Source: Yuukianura sp. NJ FZ-2021 (Eukaryota). Taken from it: a stretch of 64,000 bases of DNA. Position 1 is the stretch's first letter, and each line of letters opens with the position of its first letter. The notes under the pieces were generated by a model. That model was not told the DNA's origin. It made no database searches and saw nothing but the letters and a program-made list of their open reading frames with translations. Location: the NCBI GenBank assembly GCA_046563655.1, contig CM102287.1:3720001-3784000 (forward strand). The letters are read 5' to 3'. A program made the position numbers and the translations under genes. This document shows, piece after piece, positions 1-39,700 of this stretch.

Positions 1-3000
1 CGTCAACTACGTGAAAATGATGACTACAGAGAAATGGAACAAGCACGGGATACTGCAGCGCATCGTCAACTGCGTACTCAGGTTCATGATGAGCCCTGGG
101 AGTCGGTGGTTGAGGTCTTCGAAGAAAAATGCAGGGAAGGCCCTTCACATATCTGTATCTCCTGTGGTGGACTTTGGTTCAAGAAATCTATCAAGCAGCT
201 GCGGCGATCCGACTGTACTCGATACGATGACAACTTTCTGAACGCTGTTTTCTCTACGCAACTGGAAGGAAACTTTTGTAATACTTGTCATGCTGCAGTT
301 AGATCTGGTCGAGATTCACGCTTGGCGCTTACCAATGGACTCAACTTTCCGGTCATCCCTTCAGAGGTTTCGTCTTTGACGCGTCTGGAAGCTCGTTTAG
401 TTTCACCATACCATGTTTTCCAGGCGATTTGGGCTGTACAAGGACAGCATGGTACAGTTTAACTGTTCATAAATAAGCTCAAAATTTGATTAGTTTTGCT
501 AATAACAATATTTGCAGGTCAATTGAAGACGAAAGGACGGATTGTGAATGTTCCAGTTTCCGTGACAAATATTGTTCAAAGTCTGCCCCGCCTCCCTTCA
601 GACGATTCAGTCCTGCATCTCCGGCTGGCCCGTCAGATGCATGTGGAGAAGAACTACACGTCTGGAAATATACGTCCACAAAAAGTAGTTGACGCTGCTA
701 AAGTTTTATGTCAATCACCTTTGTACTCTCAACATGGGATATCAGTTTCGAATTCCTGGATCGCGGATTCTCAAGAATTGAATTCCTTTGACTCAGCCAT
801 GGAGAGTCAGCTTGAAAACTCTCATATAATTGCGAACGAAGAAAGTCCGGACGCTGAAACCGAAGACTCGACAGCGGGTGAGACGATGCTAACAGATGCC
901 TCGGGGCTTCGGATGGCCCCCGCTGAGGGTAATCGGCCTGTTTCTGTTCTTCTGGATGACGACGCTATATTTCTAGCCTTTCCTCAAATATTCGGCGGAG
1001 AAAAGCTCAATCCAATGTATGCCGGCAAAAAAATCTCAAAAGCTGACATGTTCATGTCGTTTGCAAGGAACAAAGACCGACGTGCTGCCGAGTCAGTGGA
1101 TTTCCTCTTGTACATGGCGAAGACTCTAGAAATTGCACGAATATCTAGCAATCGCACCATTCACTTGAGGAAACGAAAAATAAATGGTGAGCATATCATT
1201 CCAACTGCGGGACAAGTCTTGCACCAGACTTACGTTGATGGCCTCATCAAGGACGACAACGCTTATAAAGTCTTGTCCGGAATACGGAACGCAGGAGTAC
1301 ACTGGAAGAATGAAGGCAACAAAGTTCGAGCGATGATACGTACGTTTGGGATTGCCACATTGTTTGTCACGATTAGTGCTGCAGAGTTGAAGTGGAACGA
1401 GCTGTTGGTGTTATTGAAGAAAGTTCTGGACGGCATCGACATTTCTGAGCAGGAAGCCCAAGAATTGTCCACTTCTGAGAAAGCGTTGTTGATTCAGCGT
1501 GATCCAATCACATGCGCGCGGTACTTTGACCACCGTTACTCCGCTCTGAAATCTACTTACAGATCTCGAAATGGGCCTTTTGGTAATCGTGAAATCCGAC
1601 ACTTCTACGAAAGAGTGGAGTTCCAGCACCGAGGAAGCCCCCATGTGCATGCAATGTTTTGGCTCTCAGACCCACCAATTTTCAATCCAGAGAATGAATC
1701 GCATGACGAAGTGACTAGTTTCATTGACAGTATGATAACATGCCGTACAGACTACCCTCCGGAGGATCCAATCACTGGTCTACTAACTCTCCAGACTCAT
1801 CGCCATACACATACTTGCTACAAGCGAACACACAAGGGAGTTAAATGTCGTTTTGGAATACCATTCTTCCCAATGGATCAAACTCGCATCCTTTTACCAC
1901 TGGACAACCCGGCAGACTACAAGGAACTCAAGCTACGGCATAAATTGATTCGTGACTTTTTGGAAGCTCAAATGCCGGACGCGGGAATGTCATTTACACA
2001 ATTTCTAGGCGCCATAGTTTGCGATCTAGCTCTGTATTTACGAGTGATTCGGTCTAAACTAAAGAAGCCACATGTGTTTTTGAAACGTAAACCGAGCGAA
2101 GTTTATATCAACGCCTACAATGAAAAGATTTTACGGTTGCAAAAATCCAACATGGATATTCAATTTATCCTTGATCCATACGCCTGCTGCAGCTACATCG
2201 TTGATTACATCAATAAGAGCAATCGAGGTCTTTCAGAACTCTTGAGAAATGTTGTGGACGAAGTGAGAAAAGGGAATACTCCTCTCAAGGATAGTCTGCA
2301 GATGATTGGTGCCGCCCACAACTTGAATAGCGAAATTTCTGCCCAAGAGGCTGCTTACAATGTGCTCCAAATGCCAATGAGCTATTCGTCTGAAAAGTGT
2401 GTCTTTGTTCAGACTGGGCCAGAAAGCCATCGAACAAGAATGTTGAAGCCGCAAGTGGATCTATCTCAAATGGACCCGGATGACCAAAATATTTTCTTCG
2501 CGAGTCCAACCGACCATTACGCTCAGCGGGCAGTTGCATTGGAGTCGTTAAATCTTGCCCAATTCTCCGCCTGGTTTGAGTTTTCAAAAACATTAAGACG
2601 AAAGATTGGCGATCCAGACGAAGAGAATGACGCACCACCTCCAGAAGAAATGGGAACTGAAGTTTACAAATTGCGCGACGGGTCTGGATATGTACGAAAG
2701 AGGAAATTTGCAAAGGTAATCCGTTTCGTGCGCTACAACAAGGAAAAAGATCCGGAAAACTTTTTCCGAGAACTCTTGATGCTTTATAAACCCTGGAGAG
2801 ACGAGGAGAAAGAATGCGGAGAAAATATAGATTGTCAAAAAATTGTGGCGGAAAACCTAGACTTGATAACCAGCAATAGAAAGGAGTTCAATTTTTTTGA
2901 CGACTGCATACTTGATGCTGCCATGGAAGAAGTGCTGACAAGGCCACCAGAAGATGAAGTTGAATTGGATGAAAACCAACCTTCCGTAGATGACCTGCGC

Positions 3001-5393
3001 GAGTATCGTCTAGAAGATACATCAGGCACGAACGCAGTTGACTTTGGAAGCTACGAAAGACGGCCATTTGCAGAAAGTTTCAAGAATCCGCAATTGACTT
3101 CAAATGATGAGTACTGGTCGCTACTAGCTTCTTTGAACGATGAACAGCGAGACTTGGTTTACCACACCTTCGATCACGTGAAGAGAAAAGAAGGTTCAGC
3201 ATTTCATATCTACTTGAAGGGAGGTGCCGGTGTGGGCAAATCCCATGTCATCAAAACACTCTTCCAAGGATTGGTCCGAATTTTTGGTTCTGACCTCAAC
3301 CGTAATCCGGACAAAATCTCGGTCCTCCTCGTCGCTCCAACTGGGAAAGCCGCATTCAACATCGGAGGCTCCACACTACATACGGCATTTCAGCTACCAG
3401 TTAACCAACGTGAAGCTGGATCGCTGTCTGCAGATATATCTAATACAATGGCTGCGACTTACTCAGAGCTAAAGGTTTCACTCTCTCACATGTGCTTCTG
3501 ATTGTTAACTGATAGTAATTGAGATTACTAATTTACAGATCGTGATCTGCGATGAGATCAGTATGGTGGGTGAACACCTTTTGGAACAGGTGGACAAGCG
3601 CCTGAGAGATTTGTTTCAACCAATTGCACCTTTCGGGGGAATCTCTTTCATTGCCGTTGGTGACTTCTACCAGCTACCACCAGTTCTGGCTGTCCCGTTG
3701 ACGCATGGCACGATGAGCAACTCCATTTCATCTTTATTCCATCGGCCTCTTTGGCACCACTTTCTTGTGCACGAGTTGACCACAATCATGCGCCAAAGCG
3801 AAGATATCGCCTTTGCTGTGGCCCTCAATAACATGGCAAGAGGAATGATGACTGATTCAGATAAGGAACTGATGCGAAGCCGGTGCTTCGACACCCTGCC
3901 AACGGAAGTGGCGGAACTGAGACCTATCCACTTCTTCCAGACCAATGCTGCAGTGACCGCGTTCAACGAAATGTTCCTTCAGCAGATGCCAGGAGAACTG
4001 ATCCTCAGCAGAGCTACCGATAGTGTTCGTGGTGATCTCCCTCAGACGTCAAGAGTCCGACTTCTGCAACGGTTTCAAACGAAACCGCTGAACGAAACAA
4101 TGGGCCTTCCCATGGAACTTCAATTGAAAATTAACGCTCGTTATATGATGACCAACAACGTCGATTGTGCGGACGGATTAGTAAATGGTGTAACTGGTAT
4201 ATTACGAAGAATCGATCTTGGTGTGGCGATAAACGACCCTAGCGACCGTATTCCACTGCGACTATGGATAGAATTTGAAGACGCACGCAGTGGCCAGCAA
4301 TTACGTTGCCGGTACCAATCAATTGCAGACAATTTGGGCGTTGAGTCAACTTGGACGCCAGTGGAGCTACTCACACAAGAGATACATCAAAAGAATGCCA
4401 GCATAAAAATCACACGGAAGCAGTTTCCACTTGTTCCTGCAGAAGCAATCACCATTCATAAGAGCCAAGGAATCACGTGTCAAGCGTAAGTATATAATAA
4501 GTATTCCAATTTATTTTACAATTTAAGCATTCCAATTTATATTGTGCAGTGCTGTACTCCATATTGATCGTACTCGCCACATTTCTCGAGCTTTGATCTA
4601 CGTCGGCTGTTCTCGACCTACGAAAGCCAGTGGCCTTTACATTATGGGGGACTTCAGGCCTCCTAAACCAATTTCACCGACAAGTTCTCTCGCCTTGGAA
4701 ATGGCTCGTCACGAAACCATGAAGCTGGTCCCAGTCTTTCAATCGCTTCACAAAAGGGATGATGGTTTAATCCAGTTCCTTTACCACAACGTCCAGTCAT
4801 TGCCAAAGCATTCCGCAATTTATTCTTCGGATGCAAGTTACAAAATGAGCGACATTCTTCTCTTTGGTGAAACATGGACTCTGCCGGAAGACAATGTCAC
4901 AATTGGAGATCATGTGAAAATCTGCAGTGTCGATTGTGTGACAGAAAGGCGACCACTCGGAGCCAGAATTTATTTGCGGCAGCATTTGACAAATCGCATC
5001 CTGAGTACTACTACTAGATTTGTCGAAGATGAGCATGGAAGTTGCAGCTGTGTAGCCATGAATTTTGCTGGAACAAACGTAATTGGAATTTACATCAGCC
5101 CACGTTTTTGTTGGTGTCTCTTTACCTCCATAATTTCATCTCTAATCAACTCCCTTGGTGGCTCAAGGACGATCGTCGCCGGAGACTTCAACGTTAATTT
5201 CAATCTCATTGCTTCAGCTGAACGCAAGTCGATGTTGGATCTTGGACTACAACTTCGTTCTACTGACTTGCCTACGACAAAGTTCGGTACCCAAATCGAC
5301 GCGGTCTTTGCTTCATTTGAATTAGATGCGATTGGATTGTACACGTCCGCGACATCTATCCACGAGCCCATTTGGGCACGGTTCTCTCAGTAA
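1..5393 (+). CDS. Helentron transposase: CxxC region + HUH Rep + PIF1-like SF1 helicase + C-terminal AP-like (EEP) endonuclease; 4 exons visible, 5'-partial
   Basis: Exons ~<1-451, 518-3474, 3539-4486 and 4550-5393, joined by short GT-AG introns that keep frame. Motifs: CISC/CNTC; Rep YERVEFQHRGSPHVH (the S is typical of Helentrons) and YIVDYINKS; Walker A GGAGVGKS; APTGKAAFNIGGSTLH; Walker B DEISMV; GDFYQLPPV; QFPLVPAEAITIHKSQG; YVGCSR; endonuclease HNVQSL, ETW, YISP, GDFN. Confidence 0.92.
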
Positions 5394-5845
5394 CAGCTTC
5401 AGTGCTTCAATAATTAAAAGTGACTAATTCCTGATCTTCATAACAGTTATTCCAATCCAACAAAGGATGCAAGTCTAAATAATAATACAATTCATATACT
5501 GGCTTCTCAAGAAATGTTTCGGCAATAAAAATTTGTTTCTCTTCAACAAGTTTCCCTATGTAAATGCTACGAAGAATTTTCAAGTAAAGTGCCTTTTTCG
5601 ATTCCACATAATAGGTAGTTAATAAGAAAATTCAACTTTAACTTTAGCCTTTAACTGGAAAACAAAGCTTCATAAAGCTGGGCAAAGGAATTGCTAATTT
5701 GTAATTAACGGTTATTCAGAAACTACAAACCTCTTACTAAATATTTTTGTTGTATTTATTGTTATAAGTAAAGATTAAATTTCATTTTTTTTAATTAATC
5801 ACTTTGTATGAGAATCGATTACGATTTTGTTTTAATAGTCGATTA

Positions 5846-7088
5846 TTAATGTTGTAAGATTCGATTAAGTGTTTCAGCTTCGGCGGCTTCAAACCACTCT
5901 GACAAGTCCTTTGCCAAGTTGTGATCCTTTCCCACTAAGATCAAATCGCCAGGATTGCAGTCAATTGAGTTGACACCATTGTAACTAGAAATCTTCACGA
6001 GCTTGAACAAGATAATTTCAAAAGGAGCAACTTGCACGGTTTCGGTCATATCATTCCATAGCTTTGCAGTAAACTTTCCAGTCTTGTCCACAAGAGTAAG
6101 TTGACGAAGTCTGCATGTTGGGAACTCTTTGACATCTTCAATTTCAATTACCAGACCCGCCATGTCAACATATTGCCCGGCTGACATCAATTTGAGGTCT
6201 TCCGAGTCGATCGGAGTGATCTTTACTACATGAGCAGCTCCTTTGGGTGCAGTGATGACGGTGGTTTCAGTGCTACTGGCATCAAAGGATGAGTTTGTCA
6301 ATTTATTTCTGTTGTCCTTTGGCCGCAGTAAAAAGTTTTCGATTCGCACAAAAGCGTTGATCTGAAACAGATAATCTGAGAATTATTAACATATTGTGAA
6401 AATAGTTTGCTATTACCTGAAGCAGGGACTCCCATTGTGGTTTCATTACTCCGAATAACGTGAACTGGATCTCCCCGGACTCGTCACCAAAAACAAAATG
6501 CTGCAGTTGGCCTCCGTTCCCGTACGCCATTGGTCGTGCAACCTTCAACACGAGGACTTCGATTACACGAGATGTAACTGGAAGGTTAGGATGCAGCTGC
6601 TTCACAGCGATCACGGGAAGTTCAGCTGGGTCCTCTTTTGATTTCACTTGAGCTTTTTCAATCTGGCTTTTCCACTGCTGAAACGGCGACATGCAGCTTT
6701 GAGTACCGCTAGAACCAGGCATGGGTTCAATCAGAGCGGATCTACTTTGATTTCCTTAATAAATAAAAATGATTAGTCATACTACTGTAAAAGCGACATT
6801 GGTTTTCAAAGTACATTTAACAATTACCTGAAGGTTGTACATTATGTTCCGCACTTGAAGTATTGGATTCAAGGCTCTCACTCACATCACTGGCATTTTG
6901 CGCTTGATCAATAGTAGCGTCACACTTTTCGTTTTCTATTAAATAAATGAACGATTTTCAAAAAATGTATATTTACGATGTTGAAAATTTGTTCTATTTT
7001 AAGAATTACCATCTGTGTCTTGCAGTTTCAGAACCTTCGGAGCAGGTTCGCCTTTGGTATTAGAGCACCCCTTCTTCTTAGGTGACAT
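5846..7088 (-). CDS. RPA70-like two-OB-fold ssDNA-binding protein (Helentron cargo), 4 exons
   Basis: ATG at 7088 (MSPKKK, NLS-like); exons ~7088-7010, 6938-6828, 6755-6418 and 6362-5846. OB-fold-like strings LQHFVFGDESGEIQFTLFG and YVDMAGLVIEIEDVKE...RLRQLTLVDKTGKFTAKLWND resemble RPA70 DBD-A/B. Confidence 0.8.
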
Positions 7089-18180: not shown

Positions 18181-20402
18181 TGTTGAAATTGGGTTTAAGT
18201 TATTTTTTGATATTTTTGTATTTTTTGGACTAGTTTCAAAAGGCTAAATTTTGTCCATAATTTTTCTATACCGTAGGGACTAAGTATAAGCATTTGTGAA
18301 AATATGAGGAAAATTCTTCGTAGCGTTTGCTTAGGGAAACTCTTCAAAGTTTGACTTTCTGAGATAGGTTATATTTGGTGTTGTTATGTTATGCTGAGCT
18401 TGTGGGAGGATAGGGAGTGACAATAGCGTCTGGCCTTGGGCTGAGTTGGCTCTTCTGTTTTTTGTTCCCTCTTTTTTCCTCTCTCATATACAGTACGTTA
18501 TAAGAATTCAGATAAGACACACTTCATGTGTAATAACTTTCAAGTTTTCTTTGATTTTAATTGTAAGATTTTCATTGATCGCAAAGTGCGAATAAAGTAT
18601 TGTTTTCATTAAGTAAATCTCCGAGTCAGAAAGTCGAGTATTTTTCATAAAGTTATCCAGAGTCTTATTAGAAGGAATATCTACCCGGTGGGTGATATTT
18701 CCTATTTGAGTGCTTGGATCCAGATTCAACATTTATGGCGACCCTGGCAGGACCGTTGGTGTTGAAGGACAAGAGCAAAGTTTGGATTGTCATCTTTACT
18801 TGTGCTATCTACAGATGCGTTCACATCGAGTTGGTGACGGCCATTTCTACAGAAGAATTTCTCCTAGCGTTTACCAGATTCTGTATGAGGAAGAGACGGC
18901 CGGCAACAGTGTACACCGACAACGGAACAAACTTCGTTGGAACAGAAAATTTGTTCAAGACCATCAATTGGAAAGAAGTGGAGCGCAAGACCAAACATCA
19001 CCGAATTCAGTGGAGGTTCAACCCTCCAGCAGCGCCGTGGTGGGGTGGCTGGTGGGAGCGACTGATCAGAAGCCTCAAGGACTTGCTGAAGCGGATGTTG
19101 GGATTTGCAAAGCTCAACTATCAAGACCTGGAGACATGCGTGTGTGAAGCAGAATGGGTCATGAATCATCGTCCTCTTACTTTCATAACGGAAGACCAGG
19201 ATGACCTCATTCCGCTGACTCCAGCCATGTTCGTCTACGATCTTCCAGCAGACGGACTACCCGAAATTGAAGTGATGACTGGAACGAACCTAGAAGGAAA
19301 GAGGAAGAACCTCAAGAAGCTACTAGAAGAGCTACAAGATCGTTTCAGAAAAGAATATTTGGGAATTCTGGTTCAGCGTGGATCTCAGAAGATTTCGCCT
19401 GTACTGGAAGTGGGAGATTTAGTCTTCGTGGGACGTGAAGACGTGAAGAGGACACTTTGGCCAATGGGACGGATTTTAGAACTCATTCCCGGAAAGGATG
19501 GAACATCTCGTGTAGCCAAAGTGAAAACGAAGACTGGAATCCTGACTCGGCCCATGCAGCGACTCTACCCATTGGAGCTTTGTCATCGAGAGGTTCCGGA
19601 CGTGCCTGAGAAGAAGGAGAAGAAACCAGTGGCACCGGAAAACCATCAGAAGCCTCAGAAGAAGACGGTGACCAAGGACACTCAACCTCAAGAAGTCGAC
19701 ATCGTAACAACTCGGAGTGGACGAAGCATCAAGAAACCCGTGAGGTTCTGCGATTATTGATATGGTTTTAACTAAGTTCATTGTTTTAATTTTAAAGAGT
19801 TTTGACTGTTTTGTTTTTCTTTTGTTCCCACAAAAGAAAGTGGGAGTATGTTGAAATTGGGTTTAAGTTATTTTTTGGATATTTTTATATTTTTTTTGGA
19901 CTAGTTTCAAAAGGCTAAATTTTGTCCGTAATTTTACTATACAGTAGGGACTAAGTATAAGCATTTGTGAAAATATGAGGAAAATTCTTCGTAGCGTTTG
20001 CCTAGGGAAACTCTTCAAAGTTTGACTTTCTGAGATAGGTTATATTTGGTGTTATTGTGTTATGCTTAGCTTGTGGGAGGATAGGGAGTGACAATAGCGT
20101 CTGCCTTTGGGCTGAGTTGGCTCTTCTGTTTTTTGTTCCCTCTTTTTTCCTCTCTCATATACAGTACGTTATAAGAATTCAGATAAGACACACTTCATGT
20201 GTAATAACTTTCAAGTTTTCTTTGATTTTAATTGTAAGATTTTCATTGATCGCAAAGTGCGAATAAAGTATTGTTTTCATTAAGTAAATCTCCGAGTCAG
20301 AAAGTCGAGTATTTTTCATAAAGTTATCCAGAGTCTTATTAGAAGGAATATCTACCCGGTGGGTGATATTTCCTATTTGAGTGCTTGGATCCAGATTCAA
20401 CA
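18181..20402 (+). mobile_element. BEL/Pao LTR retrotransposon, internally deleted (only the integrase C-terminal part remains)
   Basis: LTRs 18181-18731 and 19849-20402 (TGTTGAA...TTCAACA); 5-bp TSD CGGAT; PBS TGGCGACCCTGGCAGGA; PPT AAAAGAAAGTGGGAG. BEL integrase motifs AGPL..KVWIVIFTC, TDNGTNFVG, PWWGGWWERLI, WPMGRILE, RPMQRLYPLE. Confidence 0.93.
18735..19760 (+). CDS. Truncated BEL integrase ORF starting at an ATG inside the PBS
   Basis: Open frame MATLAGPLVLKDKSKVW...RFCDY; it lacks the HHCC finger and the first Asp of the DDE motif. Confidence 0.6.
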   Translation: MATLAGPLVLKDKSKVWIVIFTCAIYRCVHIELVTAISTEEFLLAFTRFCMRKRRPATVYTDNGTNFVGTENLFKTINWKEVERKTKHHRIQWRFNPPAAPWWGGWWERLIRSLKDLLKRMLGFAKLNYQDLETCVCEAEWVMNHRPLTFITEDQDDLIPLTPAMFVYDLPADGLPEIEVMTGTNLEGKRKNLKKLLEELQDRFRKEYLGILVQRGSQKISPVLEVGDLVFVGREDVKRTLWPMGRILELIPGKDGTSRVAKVKTKTGILTRPMQRLYPLELCHREVPDVPEKKEKKPVAPENHQKPQKKTVTKDTQPQEVDIVTTRSGRSIKKPVRFCDY

Positions 20403-21093: not shown

Positions 21094-24000
21094 AATCAAT
21101 CAATCAATCAATCCGTTTATTTGATTTTGGCCAATGCCCTATCAATTACATTCCTGTACCTCCTTTAGATATTAAGCGTTAAGACAGAGTCATAACCTAG
21201 TTAAACCTAGTTAATAACCTAGTCAACAGTTAAAATGCTAATTTGAAAAAAGAGAAGGAAATACATAAGCAGAATTGGGGCAGACGTAAGTAAAAGTTTA
21301 TAAGTCAATTGAACTTGAAATTGTAGTTGAGGTTGAAGGAAGGAGTAGAGTCCAGGGCTCATTTGTCCAACGTTGGCTCGAATATTGACAGCACTTTGTG
21401 GTGGATATTTTGAAGTCTTTTGATGAAGGTGGCATCCTTGGCGTTCAGGTTGGTCCAAAAGATTGGGCATTGGTTTGGCGGGAGTCTCAGTTGCATTCTA
21501 TGGTGTTCTGTATACGGACATGTCCAGAGTTCATATTAATATGAAAGCTGGTCCCCACAGTAACTGCATCTCTATTCGGTGAACTGACCAAAGCCAAGCC
21601 ATTTTCGGTTGAAGTGGAGTATGTTTGAGTTAAGTCTGATCTGAAGAATGGGAGTCGTGAGATCAGAAGGAAATCGTTTTGAGAATATTTCTGTTGTCGG
21701 GAATTTTTGGCAGCTTTCAGTGTAGTGAGGGATGGAAGAGGATAGCGCGGCTTTTTCGATGTCTGATTCTCTGCACAACTTCCAAAATTTCTTATCAGTT
21801 GAATTTGTCACGGCTCTAGTCACGGTGCCGATTCCCTTGTCGTAGACTCCGTCTAGTCCGATCAGCGCTAGAACCGTTCTGAGCTGCATGCACCAACTGT
21901 ACTTGGTTTCAGGGTAAAGTGATGTCACTTTACGCAGCTGGTAGTACGTGTTTTTCGTCAGGTTAGAACAGAGGTTGGTGTGTAGTTTTGTGAAAAAGAG
22001 CCAGGTTCTTTTCACCACCTCGAATTCTAGTGGTGGGGACTCTGTTTCTAACCTAACAAACTACCTAGGAGTGGTATATGGTAGGCGCAGGAGTCTTTTG
22101 AAGTAGCTTTGTTGAACCGTTTCTAGGGTGTCTGTATGGGGCAGTCCCCAGATTTCGCAGTTGTAGAGTGTAGTGAATTTTACCAGTGAGTTTAGTAGCG
22201 TTTCTATAGTCCACAAGTCAATGTACTTTGTTTTCTTCAGTATATTTAGCGCGACTCCTTGTGCTGCTCAACGGCATTGAAGCGGCTGCTCATCGATTAT
22301 CCTATTGTTCGTTATTAGTAGGTTAGTGTACAGTTTCAGAGTAGGGGTAAGATGAGATGAGGATGTGTTTTGAGGGAGATTTGAAGAGAGGCGAGGTGGA
22401 GAGCAAGTTAGGATTTGTATGTTAGTTTACAGATCAGTCTGGATTGTGCTGTTGTGAGAGAGAGATCAGTGGAGAGATGATCAGTTTGAGATCATATTGT
22501 ATTTAGCGGTGATTATTCATCAGTTTATTCTTATGCTACAATAAATATATAGTTATATATTTATCTCCGCGATGTGTTGTTGGAGTCGGTGACCCTGATT
22601 CTTGGTAGTTAGAGGGATCTGCGGATCAGTGTTTGGAGTCTGAGGGCGTGGCTGCGGTCATTTAGGTTGGGGATTAGCGTATGAGACGCTACAGCATTTC
22701 CTGCTGCCTTTTTGAATGCGCCATTTGACTGGAATATTATACCAAGGTACTCGTACTCCGCAACGGTCTCGACCGGTGTCCCATTCGAAAGAAGTCGTCT
22801 TTTTGTAGTCGCCCCGAGCGTCGGAAAGCCACAACATTTGTCTTAGTTATGTTAACATGGAGAGCTGTTGATTTAAAAAAGTTAGAGGCGAGTTTAACCT
22901 TCTTTTGTAGCAATTCTTTGGACGGTAATGACAAAGTCGTCGGCGTACAGGAGAACATGAACAATACGAGAGCCTAGAGTGTACCCTTTCAGAAGAGATG
23001 ACGAGAGTTTGGTGACAAGATCCTCAATGAACAAGTAGAAAAGAGTGGGTCTGGCAGAATATCCTTGGAGTAGTCCATTCATAATTTTAACCGGCTCCGT
23101 GAGGCCTTCCCTTGTGTTGATCTGTGCCGTGGCGTTTCCGTAAAGGGACCTGAATACTGTTAAAAACTTGTTGGAGACACTCAGATTTCCGAGGAAAGCC
23201 CTCGGTAAACTGTGATTGGGTGTGTCAAAAGCATGAGACAAGTCAACGAAGGCGACATATAGTTCCTTCCTCTTTAGGAGTTGGCACTGGGTCATAGACA
23301 TCAGGGTGAAGATGTGGTCTGTACATGATATCTTGATTTCCGGAAACCAACTCGCAAGTCTGAAATTTTGTGATTTACTTTTATCCAGTTGGTGAGCCTT
23401 GAATTGAGGATTTTGGTGAATAATGTCAGGATGGTGTTCGTCAGCGATGTTGGGCGGTAGTTTTATGGCAAGTCTCTTGAACCCTTCCTGAAGAGCGGAA
23501 GAATTTGCGCCTTACACCAGTGCTTTTTGAACAATGGTTTGGAAGAGTGTGACCAGAAATAATAGAATGTTGGGAGTGGCCGATTTCCAGAGTTCATTTG
23601 GCACTATGTCGGGGCCTGTTGCTTTGTTCGGTTGTAGTTTCTTTGTCGCCATTCTTATTTCCAAGGCTGTTATGTCGCGGTCTAGGATTTCATTTTATAT
23701 AAAACGGCTTTCAGGAAGCACAACCCTTGGGACCTCATTTGATTTAAAGAGGTTCTGGAAGTGTTGGAACCATGTTTCCTTTGGGATTTTGTCTTGTACG
23801 ACGGATTGAGTTGTATGGAATTTGACCGCCTTCCAGAAGCTTGTGGGGTTCTTCGAAGCGTGGAGTTGCCTGACAAGGTTTGAGTTGAACATTGCTTTCT
23901 TGTTGGCTAGTTGTAGTTTAGAGTTCTTTTGAGCTTCAAAATAGAGTTGGGCATAGATCTGTTTGTCTTCAGCGTTACACCTTCGGAGTTTGCGTACTGC

Positions 24001-29273: not shown

Positions 29274-29768
29274 CTGAACTGCAAATTGACCCTTGTCTTT
29301 CACTCAATTTTCACAATGTAAGCGTCCCCTTCTATTAGATTCTCTTTTACGATTGATTTTATAAGCTAGATAGAGGAATTACAAAATGCTTTGCGTAAAA
29401 TTCAGGCTATTATCATCGTTTGTTTCTTTGTTGATGTGAACTCAATCGAACTGAGCAGGTGAAAGGAGACAAGTACAAAAAAATCAACAATTATTAGGCC
29501 AGGTCTAAAAGGCTGCAATTTTTGGAGGCAAATTGAGACGTGTTAAGGGCATGGGAAAAGGCTGCAATGGGGCAACGTGAGACCACACAGACATCATGGC
29601 TAAATGGCTGCAATTTTTCGATTGAGAAAAGGCTGCAATGGGGCAATGTGAGATTCCCATGCAAAACAAAGGAATTTCCAGGAGAAACTTCACATTACCT
29701 CAGAAATTTCGTGGGACGAGATCAAGGTAAATAGAATACTTAATAAATAATACTTAATAAATAGACGA

Positions 29769-32700
29769 TGACGGGCTAATGGGTAAGCCCAAGAAACAAG
29801 CCAGGAACAACTGATGAGATGTGATGCTAGGAAATGAGGTTGATACCTCTTTTATTTTAGGTTTAGCTTTAGATTTAGTTTTAGTTTACTTTAAGTTTAA
29901 ATTGAATGAAAGAAAAAGACAAAAGAGCCGATGACGGAAGATGAGATGTTGACTGGAAGAGGGGAGGGAGACGACTGACTGACGGAGACGAAGGGCACGA
30001 CACGAGAGGATCTTCTGGTTGACTTGAGGGTGGGTTGCAGAGACTGTAACCCCTCATGACCCCGCCGCCGAGCCCAGAGCCGTCCCGGCTCGAAAAAACC
30101 AAGGGGTACAAGCGGGTAGCATGGGCCGAGCGTCAATTTTGAAAAATTTTGAAATTGGTGCCGAATGGAGTCCAATCACTGAAAATAGAACAAAAATGGT
30201 GGGGAAAAAGCGGGGAGGGACTCTGAAAACATGAGAAAAGATTAAACCAAATTCAGGGGCTGAAATTTTGCAAATTTGTTATGCCTAATTGGGGGGTCAA
30301 ACGGGTATGGGGAAAATTTAGGAAAAATGCTCGTCTAAGGCTCAAAATGGAGGGTAAAGGAACCAATTTAGGGAATCAACATCTCTTAAGAGGAAGAAAG
30401 ATAAGGCTAGGAAGAATAATATTAAGTATATATACATAAATCAATAAGAGTGTTTAAGAACCAGTAAAAGTGTCCAAAGTCGTCATCAAAGTATTAATCC
30501 ATGGGGTGCGCGCGACGTCGATCTCCTGCAGGCCTATGTCTCCTAAAAACCTGGGAAATCAAATGATTAGGGGGGAAAACGGGGAACCATATAGGCAAAA
30601 ACTACAAAACCAATCAAAAATCAGTGCACAAAATACCAAAATACACAAAAATCAAGGCCAAAAATACCAAAAACCACAAAAATCAAATCAATTACCAAAA
30701 TCCAGAGGCATGTTTCACCCCAATACAAACCAAAGAAAATCCAGCAGCATATTTCACCGCAATAAAAGACAAAAGACAAATTAAGAAGCATGTTTCACTT
30801 CAATTAACCCAACCAAAAATACACAAAATCAGAGGCATATTTCACCCCAATTACAAAGAAAATACTCACCAAATCCGGGAAGGACCGAAGAAATTTACAT
30901 ACCAAATCCAGGGCGAGGAGGAGGGCAAGGCAATTCTTCAGTGACCATCAGGGATTTCCAATCTAAAAAATTGGGAAGGGAACGACGGAAACTGTTTAAG
31001 AGGAGGAGACGGCGACAAACAGTTTCTTCGGTTTCACATCCAAGGGTGAAGTAGATCTGGAGTTGGGGGTCCAAAAGGTCAACAATGTCCTGGCCTCGAT
31101 CTGGGTACACTTTGGCGGGAAAATGGAAATCCAAATACTGTTTCGCCAAACGAACAAACTTGGATGGGTTTGATCCAAGTGAAAAGGAGGGCTTCTTTGG
31201 AGTCACGTCTTTCTTGAAGCGGAGGCTCTGGAAAAGGCGGAAACGGGGAAGTTGAACTTGTTCCTTGACCAAACCGGGCTTGTCACAGGAGAGTGCAGAA
31301 AGTACAATGGCATCATGACGAGGTGCTGGAGGCTCCGGGTCACTAAAGCGGGCGGGGCAAGGCAATCCACGCTGAACCATCAGCGCTTCCCAGTCAAGGA
31401 AACTAGGCAGGGAGTCTCGGAAGTCATCTAGGAGCCTCAACTTCTCAAGAACTTGGAGTCCGTGGTCAACATGGGAAAGGAAATATTTTTGGAGAGAAGG
31501 ATCTATGTCGTTGATCAAGAGACTACCGAAGATGGGAGTGTAAAAGTCAAGTTCGTGGTAGACCATGGCAACTTCCCATTCCTTCTCCCTCATCCAGCTC
31601 TCAGGAATATCTCCGAGGCGGAAAATCTTACGTCGATCACCTAAAGTGTGAGAAAGAGGGAAGATGCCTGTAACTGGGAGAACGGGCATGGCGACAGGAG
31701 TAGGGGGGATAAAAACGGAATCGGGGTCTCTCGAACTGACATAGCTAGGGTTAGGATTAGGTAACGGATTTTGGATAGTATCAGGGATCACGGGCTCTGG
31801 AAGTTCTGGAATAATCGGGGGTGACGGAGTTTCAGCTGGAGGCGACGATGGAGCGTGGTCAGTTTGGAAGGAACAAGACGACTTCGATGGGGTTCCTGTG
31901 GATTGGGGGGAATCGGGAGCTGCTGCTGGCAAACGGCGAATGATTTCCTGCAGCATCTGCAGAATTCCGGAAAGAATCGGGGCTAGGGAGTCTTCTAATC
32001 CACAGGAAGAACATGACTGGCTTCTGGATTCTGGAATTTGGCTCTGATTTGGACTAAGCGGCGAGTCGAATTGGAGAGACATCAATGGGACGGGCGTGAT
32101 TCCTTGCGTCGATCGGTGTCGGTTCCTGTAGCGGGGACAGCATCCTTTGGTATGGCCACCAAATCTACAAAAGTTGCAAATCGGGCGACCATCAGGGGTT
32201 CGTAGGTTATTTGTGGTCCCCCTGGATGAATTTTTGTAGATAGGCTGCTGACTCATGGCAGGAAATCAAATGGAATTAACTGAAACTCAAAAGAAAAGTA
32301 ATTAGCAAAAGAACCAATAATTGTGAAATCAGCTTTCCTAAATTTTGTATTTAATTAGGTTTTTGTAGTATTGTCGTCTAAAAGGAGGAATTGGTAAAAG
32401 GAATTGAACGGTAGAAGTGGGGAGTACAAGGGAACAGGCGTTGCTGTAGTGCAACTGAGTTTTGCAATTTTGCAATTGCAATTGCAAAAGTAGTGGTGTT
32501 TCGTGATGGTTGGAGGAGACGCTGTTGAAAAGAGGGGAAAAGAGGGAAGAAGAGGGGAGATCCGCAGCTAGCGTGTATTCCGAGGGAGTGGGTGGACTCC
32601 TTCAACCTCCTCACCACCTCTGAGCGTCCATGACGGCTTCCTTCCTTCCACGCGTCCCAGCCGCCATCTTGAATTTTCCCTCTTTTGTGGCTAAAAATCG

Positions 32701-33399
32701 ATGATTCGGGGTCAAAATGGGCTCCAAACTGCCTAAAAATGAGGGAAACGGGATGGTGGGGCAAGGACAAATGAAAGGATGTTCATAGGGCCTCAATAAA
32801 CCACCGTAATCCACCAAAACTAACTTGATTTACCAGAAAAAACGCTAAACTGCTCTACCAACTGAGCTCCACGCCACTGGCGTGACCTCTGACCTGCAAA
32901 AGGGGATGAAACGGATAGAGGGGGGGGGGACAGCAATCGTACGAGGCGAATTTCAGGCTACAATGCCTACATTTCAAAAATCAGATGTTTGCTTTACCGA
33001 TATTCGCTGAACGGCGACGGTTACTGTTTGAATCCGGCAATGTAGGTCAGCGGTGAGGTCGTTGGCAGTAGCTTCCGGTCCCCGAGTGCAGATCGAAGGT
33101 CGTCCACCACTTGACGGGCTAATGGGTAAGCCCAAGAAACAAGACAGGAACAACTGATGAGATGTGATGCTAGGAAATGAGGTGGATACCTCTTTTATTT
33201 TAGGTTTAGCTTTAGATTTAGTTTTAGTTTACTTTAAGTTTAAATTGAATGAAAGAAAAAGACAAAAGAGCAGATGACGGAAGATGAGATGTTGACTGGA
33301 AGAGGGGAGGGAGACGACTGACTGACGGAGACGAAGGGCACGACACGAGAGGATCTTCTGGTTGACTTGAGGGTGGGTTGCAGAGACTGTAACCCCTCA
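29769..33399 (-). mobile_element. Pol-less (non-autonomous) LTR retrotransposon, 3.6 kb
   Basis: 288-bp LTRs at 29769-30056 and 33112-33399 (TGA...TCA; 3 mismatches seen); 4-bp TSD ACGA; PBS-like TGGTGGACGACC after the 5' LTR on the minus strand; G-rich tract before the 3' LTR; no PR/RT/IN motifs seen. Confidence 0.9.
30895..32256 (-). CDS. 453-aa protein: Gypsy Gag-type CCHC knuckle + Pro-rich linker + duplicated unknown domain
   Basis: RTPDGRPICNFCRFGGHTKGCC (CX2CX4HX4C); aa 252-301 and 396-445 align without gaps at 26/50 identity. Confidence 0.75.
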   Translation of the reverse strand: MSQQPIYKNSSRGTTNNLRTPDGRPICNFCRFGGHTKGCCPRYRNRHRSTQGITPVPLMSLQFDSPLSPNQSQIPESRSQSCSSCGLEDSLAPILSGILQMLQEIIRRLPAAAPDSPQSTGTPSKSSCSFQTDHAPSSPPAETPSPPIIPELPEPVIPDTIQNPLPNPNPSYVSSRDPDSVFIPPTPVAMPVLPVTGIFPLSHTLGDRRKIFRLGDIPESWMREKEWEVAMVYHELDFYTPIFGSLLINDIDPSLQKYFLSHVDHGLQVLEKLRLLDDFRDSLPSFLDWEALMVQRGLPCPARFSDPEPPAPRHDAIVLSALSCDKPGLVKEQVQLPRFRLFQSLRFKKDVTPKKPSFSLGSNPSKFVRLAKQYLDFHFPAKVYPDRGQDIVDLLDPQLQIYFTLGCETEETVCRRLLLLNSFRRSLPNFLDWKSLMVTEELPCPPPRPGFGM

Positions 33400-33524
33400 A
33401 CGAGATGACATTCCTTTCCAAAACTAAAAAACTTCATGGAAAAAGTTCAGCGAATCAGAAATTCTTTACTAATTAAAACCTTTTTCTTTAAAAAAACTGG
33501 CGCGGCGCCTATCTTAATGGCTAG

Positions 33525-33952
33525 GGTTCGGCGAATACCGTTTCGTTTTTCAAGTTGGGAATTTTAAAAAAACCGAAGCGATGTGGAACCAAAGTTTCGA
33601 CCGGTTCGATATTACTGTGAAGTCAAAATATCGAACAATCCAAGTTCTCAAAAAACTCGGCGCGGCACATATCCTAATGGCTTGGGTTCGGCTAATACGC
33701 GGCACATAGTTCGAAGCCATTCAATTAGATACGGTTACCACACAGTTCTCTCTCGTCAATTACCGCTAAACTAAACGGTATTAGCCGAACCCAATACATT
33801 AAGATATACCCTACACCGAGTTTTTTGAGAACTTGGATTTTTCGATATTTTGACTTCACAGTAATATCGCACCGGTCGAACCTTTGGTTCCAAATCGCTT
33901 CGGTTTTTTAAAATTCCCAACTTGAAAAACGAAACGGCGGTATTCGCCGAAC
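33525..33952. repeat. Foldback inverted-repeat element
   Basis: ~135-bp arms GTTCGGCGAATACCG...CTCAAAAAACTCGG and their reverse complement. Confidence 0.75.
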
Positions 33953-36752: not shown

Positions 36753-39700
36753 TTATGACTGATGATGATGCTGCTGATGATGCTGATGCATTGTCTTCTT
36801 GGGAGTCTGATCCTTGCTGTAATTACTAATCACTTTCTTCAGTTCTCCAGTATTGCTTCCGGAATTGGCCGAGTGAGAAGCGTTGTTATTTGGTGTTAAA
36901 TGATTGTATTGTGGCGGCATGTAGTAGCACGTAGCTGGATATACAGTTCCAGCACACTTTCCAGCTTGAAAGCTATTGTACAATAACAATATTTTAATCA
37001 ACTTCTGTAATTAAATTGGATTGGTCTTGCATTCAAGCCATTAGGAATCTTACTCAGAGGCATAGAGCTGGTACGCAAGTCTTTGTATGAGTTGAAGAGT
37101 GAGGCGACGCTCATGTCCCATCAAACACACTGTTGACGAGTCAACGACATTATGAAGTGTCACCAAGAAAGCATACCGAAGCCTTCCGGAAACTCCAGAC
37201 ATGTGATTTGCCACAAATGTCCTCAGTTTGACTTCTTGTTGCTCAATCTGAAAAAAAATGAAAAATTAATACATTTTAGATGATCTAGGAAGGAACAGCA
37301 ATCAGTTTAACTCCAAAGGATCGAAAAATATCATTTCAAAACAAGGTAGGGCGATGCTCAAGGGTTGAGCACAGGTCTTCTGGAGGGTGTTGACAATTGA
37401 TGCGACTTAAATCGGTGTGACTTAAAACTGTGGAAGAACTGAGAAACCGTTTTCACGGAATTGATGCAAAAAAACATCGCTCAAAATTTTCAGTGAGGAT
37501 GTGAGGTTCTATTTTGTGCATGAGTTGCACCAAAATTGTGTTGGCAAATCTACCTTTTAATTGCACCAAAATCAAGTTCCAGTTTTGAGCCCCAAAACAT
37601 GTGCACTGAATTGATGTTCTTAATTTGTTGAGCAAAATGCGCACAATGTATTGTCCGTGTTACCATGGCAATGCATTATTAGCGGACAACTGCATCAAAA
37701 TGTTGTTCAAATTAAGCTCATATTTTACTCTGTTCAAAATTATTTTGTTGCACAATTGTTCTCAAAACTGCACAAACCTTCAATTGTGTTCATTATGCAC
37801 AAAATTGAACGTTGAGGGAGGGGGTCAAATATTGTTTCTTAAAAGTCATAGTCGGTTCCAGTAAATGCACAAGTTGGGATTTGTGTGCAACCGCTTTTAA
37901 GTGCTTATCATGCACAAAATTGTACGTTGTGGGGTAGGGGTCGAATATCGTTTCTTTAAATTCAAAATAATAAAAAGTTTCTTCTTAATGCACATTTGAA
38001 TCCTCCCATTCACTGTTTCCATATTATGAGTTTAAGCCAGATTTTCTACCCCCTAGTTAAGTCTTAATTTAACAACGTAATTAAACATACTGCCAGAAAA
38101 TGACCGGATCAAAACTTCGTTGCTTAAATATATTTTGAGTGTAATCGAAACCAAAATGTTTCCGGGAAACGACTGCACTTAGGGTGCATAAAGTGGCCGC
38201 CCATTTCCACGTTGTTAATATAACACTTTGAGTGCAATGTAGACTTAATGAAAACACTTGAGGCATGCATAACCCCCCGGACAAAATGGAGCTTATGTTT
38301 TAGCGCAAAAGATACTAAAAAAGCGAACGGACAGACAGACAAAGTCGTATCAATAGTCTTCTTCAGCATGTCGTAGACATGCGTCTTGTGAGGTTCAGGG
38401 CTCACACGGCTTGAGAGACAAAGGATGATAGTGCAGAAAAAATAAGTGACCGAGTGGGATTCGAACCCACGTCTTTCTCCAATCCGGGGAGACTGCACTG
38501 CCCTTATGCTATCAGGCCACAACTTGCACAGGATAGAATCGGAAGGCTACCATAACAGGCACTGTCCATTCCATACACCTCTATCCTTGGCGGTTGGGAG
38601 TGGGACTGTTCCCAAACGCCACATCACCCGCCCCTCAAGCCCCCTCACGGCCCAACCGTCTTTCGGCACCAAGTGTGAGGTTCAGGGCTCACACGGCTTG
38701 AGAGACAAAGGATGATAGTGCAGAAAAAATAAGTGACCGAGTGGGATTCGAACCCACGTCTTTCTCCAATCCGGGGAGACTGCACTGCCCTTATGCTATC
38801 AGGCCACAACTTGCACAGGATAGAATCGGAAGGCTACCATAACAGGCACTGTCCATTCCATACACCTCTATCCTTGGCGGTTGGGAGTGGGACTGTTCCC
38901 AAACGCCACAGTCTCCAGAAGACTAATTCTTCAGCATGTCGTAGACATGCGTCTCCAGAAGACTAACAGGTTTGATTGAAAAGGTCATCGACACGTCGCT
39001 TGAAACCACTGTGCTGCAGTGCAGTATGTTAGGACAGAGGATTAAGAGCGACACAATGCAATTGATAGACTGCTGTTGGGTAACCCGTTTTCCGCGGGGG
39101 GTAAAGTGAATTATTCCATTACATTAATTTCAGAAATCTCTCTAGAAGTTGTGGAACTCGCGCCGAATTCAACAAAAGCATTCGTGTGTTATTTTTATAA
39201 AAACTGAATCAGTTTTACTGATTCAATCATGCGCTAAAAAAAAGAAATTGCGGAAATAGTTAACCATGTAGCGTACGAGGGGAATCCGTATCACCGTATG
39301 TATCCCTTCTAAAAGTTAATAAAAAGTTAATTAACCTTCTTTCGGCCACTTACCTCAGGGAAATCAATGAAAAATCGTGAGCACATGTATCGCTGGAGTG
39401 GAACTATGGAATGCACATCGGCCGGCCTGTAACCACGAACAACCAGGTTACAGAATTTGAGTAGCCCTCCACCCCGAATTTCTTCTGGATTATGTGTGGC
39501 AATTAGACCATGATGGAGGTGGAATAGAGCTTCGCCAAAGTCCCCGTAAACAGATTCACCAATCACGGTAGGAAAGAACCTGCAAATTAGAAAAAAATTT
39601 AACTCAATTCAACCTAATAAGTTTAGAGAAACTTAGAACGTTTCAAAGAAAAAAACCTTGAACTCACCTGGCGGACATTGGAATTGTGGCACACTTGTAA

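Follow-up and report, generated by a model that had tools for sequence, protein, structure and literature searches.

The element at positions 29769 to 33399 of the window, by which the whole 64-kb stretch of DNA analysed is meant, is a genuine LTR retrotransposon of an animal genome, inserted recently, present in multiple copies and without polymerase genes. It is 3631 nt long, of which only 3055 nt are internal region, and it belongs to a known kind of dependent LTR element with an unusual protein.

Boundaries and reading strand of the element

The repeat search found a single pair of 288-nt direct repeats, located at exactly 29769-30056 and 33112-33399. The two LTRs are identical at 285 of 288 positions (3 differences) and have TG..CA ends whichever strand is read. 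They are flanked on both sides by ACGA, a 4-bp match with a chance of about 1/256. The near-identical LTRs and intact TSD claimed in the first-pass annotation were in this way confirmed. The boundary features and the features outside the coding region are as follows.

29769..30056, minus strand: 3′ LTR (element orientation) of 288 nt, bounded by TG..CA and carrying AATAAA at LTR position 201
33112..33399, minus strand: 5′ LTR (element orientation), partner in the 288-nt direct repeat pair
29765..29768, no strand: left TSD copy ACGA, same letters as 33400-33403
33400..33403, no strand: right TSD copy ACGA, same letters as 29765-29768
33098..33109, minus strand: candidate primer-binding-site-like (PBS-like) 12-mer that begins with TGG and lies 2 nt past the 5′ LTR
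30057..30075, minus strand: PPT-like and G-rich, immediately upstream of the 3′ LTR, by position only
32257..33111, minus strand: leader of 855 nt, ATG-poor by ATG count against shuffles
32852..32899, minus strand: hairpin within the leader, then a stretch resembling a tRNA D-arm and a run of T, a lead only
30593..30861, minus strand: 3′ untranslated region with a pair of short tandem arrays, one of 31 nt x 3 and one of about 39-47 nt x 4

The element is read on the minus strand, which corrects the first-pass annotation. The TGG-start 12-mer after the LTR, the AATAAA at LTR position 201, the strand of the open reading frame (ORF) and the depletion of ATG in the leader all agree on this orientation. 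The plus-strand orientation was tried and rejected, there being no TGG-start site 3′ of the left LTR, no purine run preceding the right LTR and no ORF. The PBS-like 12-mer occurs once in the window, where 0.09 occurrences are expected by chance, and two tRNA-Ser genes in the window did not fit it when judged by eye. The PPT-like stretch is assigned by position alone since its purine run is interrupted and not clean. The leader contains 4 ATGs against 11.8 ± 3.1 in shuffles (P 0.006), and its antisense strand contains 13. At 32852-32899 Rfam proposed the tRNA-like part of YrlA at E 3.3, below threshold, and ARAGORN called no tRNA there; over the element as a whole Rfam gave nothing at gathering score and sub-threshold rows only at E≤10. 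The tandem-array part of the 3′ untranslated region shows indel differences among family copies.

No pol was found in the element. Nine of the ten stop-to-stop ORFs of at least 75 aa other than the main one matched no Pfam family at E≤0.1, and the tenth gave one ELP6 row below threshold, at E 0.04 and 13.8 bits where the cut-off is 31.6. No Pfam family for RT, RNase H, integrase or protease was found in any element ORF of at least 75 aa. The proposed recent insertion of a pol-less LTR element is borne out by this and by the 3/288 differences between the LTRs. With no pol remaining by which to classify the element, an assignment to Gypsy is without basis in the sequence.

The encoded protein and its possible role

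The coding features of the element are as follows.

30895..32256, minus strand: the one long ORF in the element, 453 aa, with the stop codon counted in the span
32137..32178, minus strand: zinc-knuckle pattern CX2CX4HX4C, aa 27-40, in a basic stretch (pattern match)
31642..32124, minus strand: linker rich in Pro and Ser, aa 45-205 (P 19%, S 16%)
31321..31635, minus strand: repeat unit 1, predicted helical, aa 208-312 (AF2: six helices, pLDDT 66.6)
30898..31197, minus strand: repeat unit 2, predicted helical, aa 354-453 (blastp, MAFFT and codon comparison)

An in-frame stop lies 3 codons upstream of the ATG of the ORF. The knuckle, at aa 27-40 of 453, is N-terminal to all else, and the usual Gag order of capsid followed by nucleocapsid is not found. 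Translated in six frames, the window yields 127,996 residues, among which its pattern has 1 match. Of the knuckle-first ORF described earlier, the CX2CX4HX4C spacing at aa 27-40 stands and the identity with a Gag nucleocapsid is putative, the Pfam zf-CCHC profile giving the knuckle no score even at E≤10. Pfam searches of the ORF at E≤1 and E≤10 returned neither zf-CCHC nor a capsid family, in keeping with the earlier remark that no capsid domain is visible.

The C-terminal part holds two copies of a helical unit of roughly 100 aa. Unit 1 (aa 208-312) and unit 2 (aa 354-449) align by blastp with E 5e-18 and 38 of 108 columns identical, and by MAFFT with identity in 39 of 91 aligned pairs. In the core quoted in the first-pass annotation 26 of 50 positions are identical (52%) with no gap, which upholds its description of two copies of one domain with a core about 50% identical. 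An AF2 model of aa 196-453 alone was unusable (pLDDT 38), and unit 1 modelled as a two-copy complex gave no answer (score 0.00), which neither supports nor opposes self-association. Capsid, SCAN and Arc-type chains were absent among the fold matches listed, which leaves room for them. The Foldseek rows suggest the MLLE/PABC domain, recognisable by the five-helix PABC fold or the Pfam PABP profile, as a possible lead. For a possible resemblance of the conserved core of the duplicated unit to SCAN or capsid C-terminal domains, the Pfam test was negative.

Homology was searched with the whole ORF, the C-terminal half or a two-unit profile, A1. Neither the ORF nor its domain had a relative among PDB sequences or in the ESM Atlas, and fold searches assigned it to no known fold. 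A 5.8-billion word-indexed protein library held none either, as searched with the whole ORF among proteins of 249-793 aa and with the A1 profile among those of 185-2000 aa, and phmmer against 1.84 billion representatives gave 0 matches at E≤0.001. A search of metagenome loci by protein yielded 169 pattern matches and 0 confirmed. The match to a known Gag or host domain that could have overturned the first reading was thus found in none of Pfam, PDB, the protein libraries and the ESM Atlas. Two candidates were rejected as chance: four metagenome loci sharing a 19-nt LTR/PBS word, alike across just 23-27 nt and with no protein match, and one weak tblastn match within the window at 3222-3365 (E 0.2), antisense to a Helitron ORF. 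In general literature searches no protein with the knuckle first and this duplicated domain was described, text searching being blind to sequence families.

How such a protein may serve the element was considered next to these results. It is an even call that this is a semi-autonomous LTR element, making its own RNA-binding, particle-associated protein and borrowing RT and integrase. A full-length RNA would start in the 5′ LTR, on the 33399 side, and end past the AATAAA of the 3′ LTR, and its long ATG-poor leader would let ribosomes through to the single ORF. Judging by its sequence, the basic N-terminal CCHC knuckle may bind the element's own RNA in the manner of a nucleocapsid. The two helical units on their Pro/Ser-rich tether of roughly 160 aa would be protein-protein modules, which either self-associate or dock on particles belonging to an LTR element that has pol. 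Such a partner would have an identical primer-binding site and LTR ends, and its protease, reverse transcriptase and integrase would act in trans. In this manner a structural and packaging protein would be added, or competed with, by the element, while the enzymes are borrowed. Counting against this semi-autonomous reading are the lack of profile or fold support for Gag and the knuckle-first order, reversed relative to Gag. The interruption of the PPT-like stretch also counts against it, as does the lack in the window of a pol-bearing partner sharing LTR or PBS; none was found in the metagenome scan either.

It is possible, though somewhat unlikely, that the ORF is not Gag-derived and is instead an accessory gene, either taken up from the host or another element or arisen within this one. 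Its CCHC would then be incidental or serve another nucleic-acid role. The protein could counter host silencing or act in nuclear import or targeting, with mobilisation by cis signals alone. The missing Gag, capsid and zf-CCHC profile matches speak for this, as do the domain order unlike Gag and a domain with no relative in the PDB, protein libraries, ESM Atlas or metagenome loci. A precedent is given by wheat RLG_Sabrina variants, which in the part of the source relied on here swapped GAG-Pro for unrelated short ORFs (PMC9744471). It is countered by the exactness of the CX2CX4HX4C pattern in a basic N-terminus, found once in 127,996 six-frame residues, and by its position, since an LTR element is where a nucleocapsid knuckle would be looked for. 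A host paralogue was moreover absent from the window and from the protein libraries. Starting again from the semi-autonomous reading, the duplicated helical unit might be a lineage-specific capsid replacement, a proposal which we regard as quite unlikely. The canonical capsid would have been dropped in favour of a bilobed assembly or docking module, made by doubling a single small domain, behind the N-terminal knuckle. That module, on the same improbable footing, might load the element's own RNA into the particles of another element or build novel particles.

Constraint on the protein and copies of the family

The comparison of copies rests on those listed, which comprise 40 of 527 substitutions, 12 of 72 indels and 32 of 918 pieces, and the full-length reading covers this one copy only. 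Between units 1 and 2 the synonymous sites are saturated (pS 0.785) with pN at 0.466, and codon identity is 48/58/32% at positions 1/2/3. Seven of the 12 listed ORF variants are synonymous against 3.8 expected, a weak excess (P 0.049). The nine listed pieces wholly in the ORF, amounting to 1964 nt with 146 substitutions, are all ungapped at up to 15% divergence. Gapped pieces number 0/9 for the ORF against 9/13 for the non-ORF internal region (Fisher P 0.0014), or 5/8 with the tandem arrays removed (P 0.009), all among the listed pieces. In gap letters the difference is 0 in the listed diverged ORF pieces against 38 in the non-ORF internal pieces, and the 12 listed indels all fall outside the ORF. 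The saturated synonymous sites together with the gapless diverged ORF pieces argue that the ORF is kept as a protein. The view that selection held the ORF open while the repeats diverged is accordingly sustained, and no broken frame, which would have spoken against it, was seen among the copies listed. The constraint between the units could be older than the capture of the gene by the element.

A very doubtful explanation is that the ORF is a functionless relic, open in this copy only through the copy's youth, in a large retrotransposon derivative whose movement would depend on nothing but LTRs, PBS, PPT and a packaging signal. The copy is indeed young, with 3 LTR differences in 288, and for that reason the open frame in this copy alone proves little. 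Deletion forms also exist in the family, with joints from 30128 to 32627 and from 30153 to 33359 in one sequencing run. A relic would nevertheless not account well for protein similarity retained between units whose synonymous sites are saturated, for listed ORF pieces that stay gapless at up to 15% divergence while non-ORF pieces are gapped, for the synonymous excess in 7/12 listed ORF variants, or for the ATG depletion of the leader.

Contigs matching the stretch at 85-100% identity numbered 376, 311 and 117 in one sample and 92 under a second organism label. In two contigs the match ends at 30056/30057 and unlike DNA follows, and such departures at the LTR edge indicate other insertion sites. 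In a paralogous contig without the element the left flank is joined to exactly 33400; this element-free site is also missing 46 nt on the left side of the LTR (29723-29768), a caveat on the TSD. These contigs support the element's membership of a family with many copies and further insertion sites. That it is not mobile, the repeats stemming from local segmental duplication or faulty assembly on either side of an ordinary gene, agrees with the one copy in the 64-kb window but is extremely improbable and already contradicted by the contig data on copies, breakpoints and the element-free site, that is, by hundreds of contigs of graded identity under two organism labels, breakpoints at the LTR edge and a paralogous site ending exactly at the LTR, and it is opposed also by the TG..CA termini, TSD and PBS-like site.

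Comparison with known dependent elements

LARD and TRIM elements have LTRs, PBS and PPT and no pol, are mobilised in trans and usually have no conserved coding capacity, TRIMs being far smaller. The present element is like them in having LTRs without pol and differs in keeping a constrained ORF; with 3631 nt and a constrained 453-aa ORF it is not the very small, non-coding element that defines a TRIM. The knuckle shares with the zf-CCHC nucleocapsid knuckle the identical Cys/His spacing, the basic context and the location inside an LTR element, but the Pfam profile is silent and the motif is in single copy and N-terminal rather than after a capsid.

The nearest likeness comes from RLG_Quinta, described in the portion of PMC11302176 drawn on here as a non-autonomous centromeric Ty3/gypsy element of Triticeae with GAG and a domain whose function is unknown and without RT/INT. 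It is thought there to give the structural protein while its partner RLG_Cereba gives the enzymes (PMC11302176). Both are LTR elements without RT or integrase with a single intact ORF that includes an unknown domain. For RLG_Quinta the same portion calls the Gag homology ‘very clear’ and has the partner known by shared PBS and LTR ends (PMC11302176), whereas the present element has no recognisable capsid, an N-terminal knuckle, a duplicated unknown domain and an animal host. RLG_Sabrina variants and RLG_WHAM of wheat are pol-less LTR families, abundant and recently active according to the sections of PMC9744471 used here, and in some of them unique segments replace GAG-Pro and code for short proteins without homology. 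These are plant elements of 6.6-8.3 kb with short proteins (PMC9744471), in contrast to the 3.6 kb, the 453-aa protein, the internal duplication and the knuckle of the present one. As far as the excerpts of PMC3735527 and PMC9744471 describe it, BARE2 of barley is alike in that a related element supplies the missing function. It is opposite in having GAG disrupted and the other genes kept, the present element keeping its ORF with all of pol absent.

What is understood of dependent LTR elements with a retained gene comes mainly from cereals, and a clean young animal example extends the ‘semi-autonomous’ strategy beyond plants. Its constrained orphan protein offers a small, tractable system for how a parasite of a parasite packages its RNA. 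For annotation, gene finders might take the 453-aa ORF for a host gene.

Anatomy and coding layout of the element

The repeat search recovered a single pair of long terminal repeats (LTRs) at exactly the ends given to the element by the first-pass annotation, which had described a young, pol-less LTR element with a zinc knuckle fused to a duplicated domain. That description was real and correct, apart from the strand, which is minus, and the label 'Gypsy', which is unsupported because the element retains no pol to classify.

Main features of the element (window positions)
29769-30056 and 33112-33399, minus-strand element: LTR pair, 288 nt direct repeat
29765-29768 and 33400-33403: ACGA 4-nt repeat directly outside both element ends
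32256 to 30895, minus strand: main ORF, 453 aa

The LTRs both start with TG and finish with CA and differ at 3/288 positions, which would correspond to roughly 0.5-5 million years if the rate lies between 1e-8 and 1e-9 per site per year; with ACGA on both sides, near-identical LTRs and an intact target site duplication are both confirmed. The minus-strand reading rests on four features: a 12-mer starting with TGG 2 nt past the LTR at 33112 (unique in the window, 0.09 expected by chance), AATAAA at LTR position 201 in minus-strand orientation, an imperfect G-rich purine stretch adjoining the opposite LTR, and a leader of 855 nt with only 4 ATG, where shuffled versions have 11.8 ± 3.1 (P 0.006) and the antisense strand has 13. 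All four leader ATGs open frames of at most 18 codons. At 32852-32899 (minus) the leader also holds a 6-bp hairpin, a 17-nt tRNA D-arm-like stretch resembling a Pol III A-box and a T run; this segment scored only E 3.3 in Rfam and gave no tRNA by ARAGORN.

The internal region is 3055 nt, and the absence of pol was borne out, as no Pfam family was found in the main ORF. Among the ten other element ORFs of at least 75 aa, nine had no Pfam family at E≤0.1 and one had a sub-threshold ELP6 row. The main ORF, preceded by a stop three codons 5′ of its ATG, is the one long frame in either orientation of the element, and is followed by 838 nt including two short tandem arrays. Its product comprises a basic N-terminus with the knuckle, a Pro/Ser-rich segment (aa 45-205; P 19%, S 16%) and two helical units. 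A duplication makes up the C-terminal half (aa 208-312 versus 354-449; blastp E 5e-18, 38/108 columns identical), with 39/91 aligned pairs identical by MAFFT, and 26/50 in the core quoted by the first-pass annotation. The knuckle said to start the ORF stands as a CX2CX4HX4C spacing at aa 27-40, with no second match in the 127,996 six-frame residues of the window, but its assignment to Gag is not established, Pfam being blank.

No match to a known Gag or host domain was found in Pfam at E up to 10 (whole protein, knuckle alone and each unit), and no relative among PDB sequences (protein; profile from the two units), in a word-indexed 5.8-billion library (ORF at near lengths; two-unit profile at longer lengths), by phmmer against all 1.84 billion representatives, in the ESM Atlas or in a metagenome scan. 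Since the libraries searched are poor in eukaryotic transposon proteins, these results mean 'not found' and not 'unique'.

Constraint on the reading frame

Three lines of evidence, unequal in strength, indicate that the ORF is kept as a protein, as had been proposed from its remaining open while the units diverged. Between unit 1 and unit 2, codon identity is 48%, 58% and 32% at positions 1, 2 and 3, and synonymous differences reach a proportion of 0.785 (saturation) against 0.466 for non-synonymous ones. Similarity still visible at such an age implies long selection on the protein, which could in principle have acted before the ORF became part of the element.

The second line is a comparison of gaps in the 32 listed of 918 pieces aligned from public sequencing runs. 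The nine listed pieces wholly in the ORF (1964 nt, divergence up to 15%) carry 146 substitutions and 0 gap letters, whereas the 13 listed internal non-ORF pieces (2748 nt) carry 173 substitutions and 38 gap letters, with 9/13 gapped (Fisher P 0.0014). When indel-prone tandem arrays are left out, 5/8 non-ORF pieces are gapped versus 0/9 ORF pieces (P 0.009), and all 12 indels listed, out of 72, fall outside the ORF. Thirdly, the 12 ORF substitutions among the 40 listed of 527 overall include 7 synonymous ones versus 3.8 expected (P 0.049), and 3/5 replacements are Val/Ile.

A low-depth contig (3.2) from run X5, which carries a second organism label, goes back 155 nt at 31538-31692 with 4 letters between, forming a 159-nt in-frame tandem duplication (53 codons) at the start of unit 1 that may be an assembly artefact. 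A subfamily seen in X1 and X2 is missing 93 nt immediately 3′ of the ORF (30804-30896), with one letter inserted; as aligned, the gap touches two stop-codon bases, and the C-terminus of such copies may be different.

Family, insertion sites and flanks

The stretch is partly present in five public runs, and contigs from four were aligned to it: 376, 311 and 117 from three runs of one sample, which may be the window's own source, and 92 from the run under another organism label. Contig identity in X1 was ≥99% for 125, 95-99% for 123, 90-95% for 87 and under 90% for 41. Summed word depth, which is not a copy number, is far higher in the element interior than in the last flank bins. Two X5 contigs follow the element as far as the LTR edge at 30056/30057 before running on into 127 and 255 nt of unlike sequence, marking either other insertion sites or solo LTRs. 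X1 and X2 each have a contig in which the left flank runs straight into 33400, the first base past the LTR. With 10 substitutions and 15 gap letters in some 200 nt of its left part, it is a paralogue of the flanking repeat rather than an empty allele. Taken together, the contigs document a family that is dispersed and whose copies end where the LTRs end.

The element-less contig is also missing 46 AT-rich nt left of the LTR (29723-29768), among them a 14-nt tandem duplication, and a 7-nt direct repeat (29716-29722 and 33400-33406) stands on either side of the missing block as a whole. This absence may be a paralogue indel predating the insertion or a feature of the insertion itself. The flanks (29400-29760 and 33400-33940) are multi-copy in the runs, the element being nested in another repeat family; the left one holds short direct repeats and the right one a MITE-like 152-nt inverted repeat pair (33547-33698 / 33778-33929, 86% complementary).

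A dependent element and its surroundings

The element is an enzyme-less LTR element with many copies, a recent insertion and a constrained ORF. That it is semi-autonomous, borrowing its enzymes while encoding its own RNA-binding, particle-associated protein, is a reading to which we give an even chance. The ATG-poor leader would let the main ORF be reached, and a pol-bearing LTR element, compatible in its primer-binding site (PBS) and LTR ends, would supply reverse transcriptase, integrase and protease. The element's own protein would bind element RNA via the knuckle, and the helical repeats would carry this RNA into particles, either by associating with themselves or by docking on the Gag of the partner. 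That the duplicated unit is a capsid substitute seems unlikely, and the finding would gain weight if it were true.

Gag membership is not established because the knuckle is no more than a pattern, a capsid cannot be recognised and the domain order is inverted. The main rival, in which the ORF has nothing to do with Gag and is an accessory gene, either acquired or new, is a tentative possibility. That the ORF is a relic is improbable and fits the evidence for constraint poorly. An artefact is scarcely credible, being contradicted by the contigs from public runs.

On this semi-autonomous reading the element works like RLG_Quinta or the RLG_Sabrina variants, and its kind is known from cereals. 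RLG_Quinta is described as being without reverse transcriptase and integrase, encoding GAG together with a domain whose function is unknown (PMC11302176), and as paired with RLG_Cereba via identical PBS and LTR ends (PMC11302176). In the RLG_Sabrina variants GAG-Pro is reported as swapped for segments encoding short homology-less proteins, and such elements are termed semi-autonomous by the authors (PMC9744471). BARE2, described with a broken GAG and its other genes intact (PMC9744471), is the opposite case, whereas the present element keeps its ORF without pol. What is described here is a dependent LTR element from an animal genome, whose orphan protein is under constraint and unusually laid out.

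The genome is taken as animal because of host genes with very short introns at 39330-63763, namely a TENT5/FAM46-type nucleotidyltransferase, a GT10 fucosyltransferase, an angiotensin-converting-enzyme-like peptidase M2, SAC3/GANP, a serpin and GT17. Elsewhere in the window, neither a BEL/Pao-type integrase fragment (18696-19760, plus; DUF5641 E 3e-16, rve weak) nor the separate fragment of a reverse transcriptase (22894-23511, minus; RVT_1 E 1.5e-10) has DNA in common with the element. A Helitron-type element at 1-6755 has Helitron_like_N (E 1e-20) together with PIF1 helicase pieces between 490 and 4489 (plus); another ORF, of 288 aa, lies at 4527-5393, and the minus strand holds RPA-like OB-fold ORFs (5849-6382, REPA_OB_2 E 1e-8). 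Two tRNA-Ser(GGA)-like genes, identical and low-scoring (38445-38520 and 38732-38807, minus; Rfam 34.6 bits), sit in a 287-nt tandem duplication.
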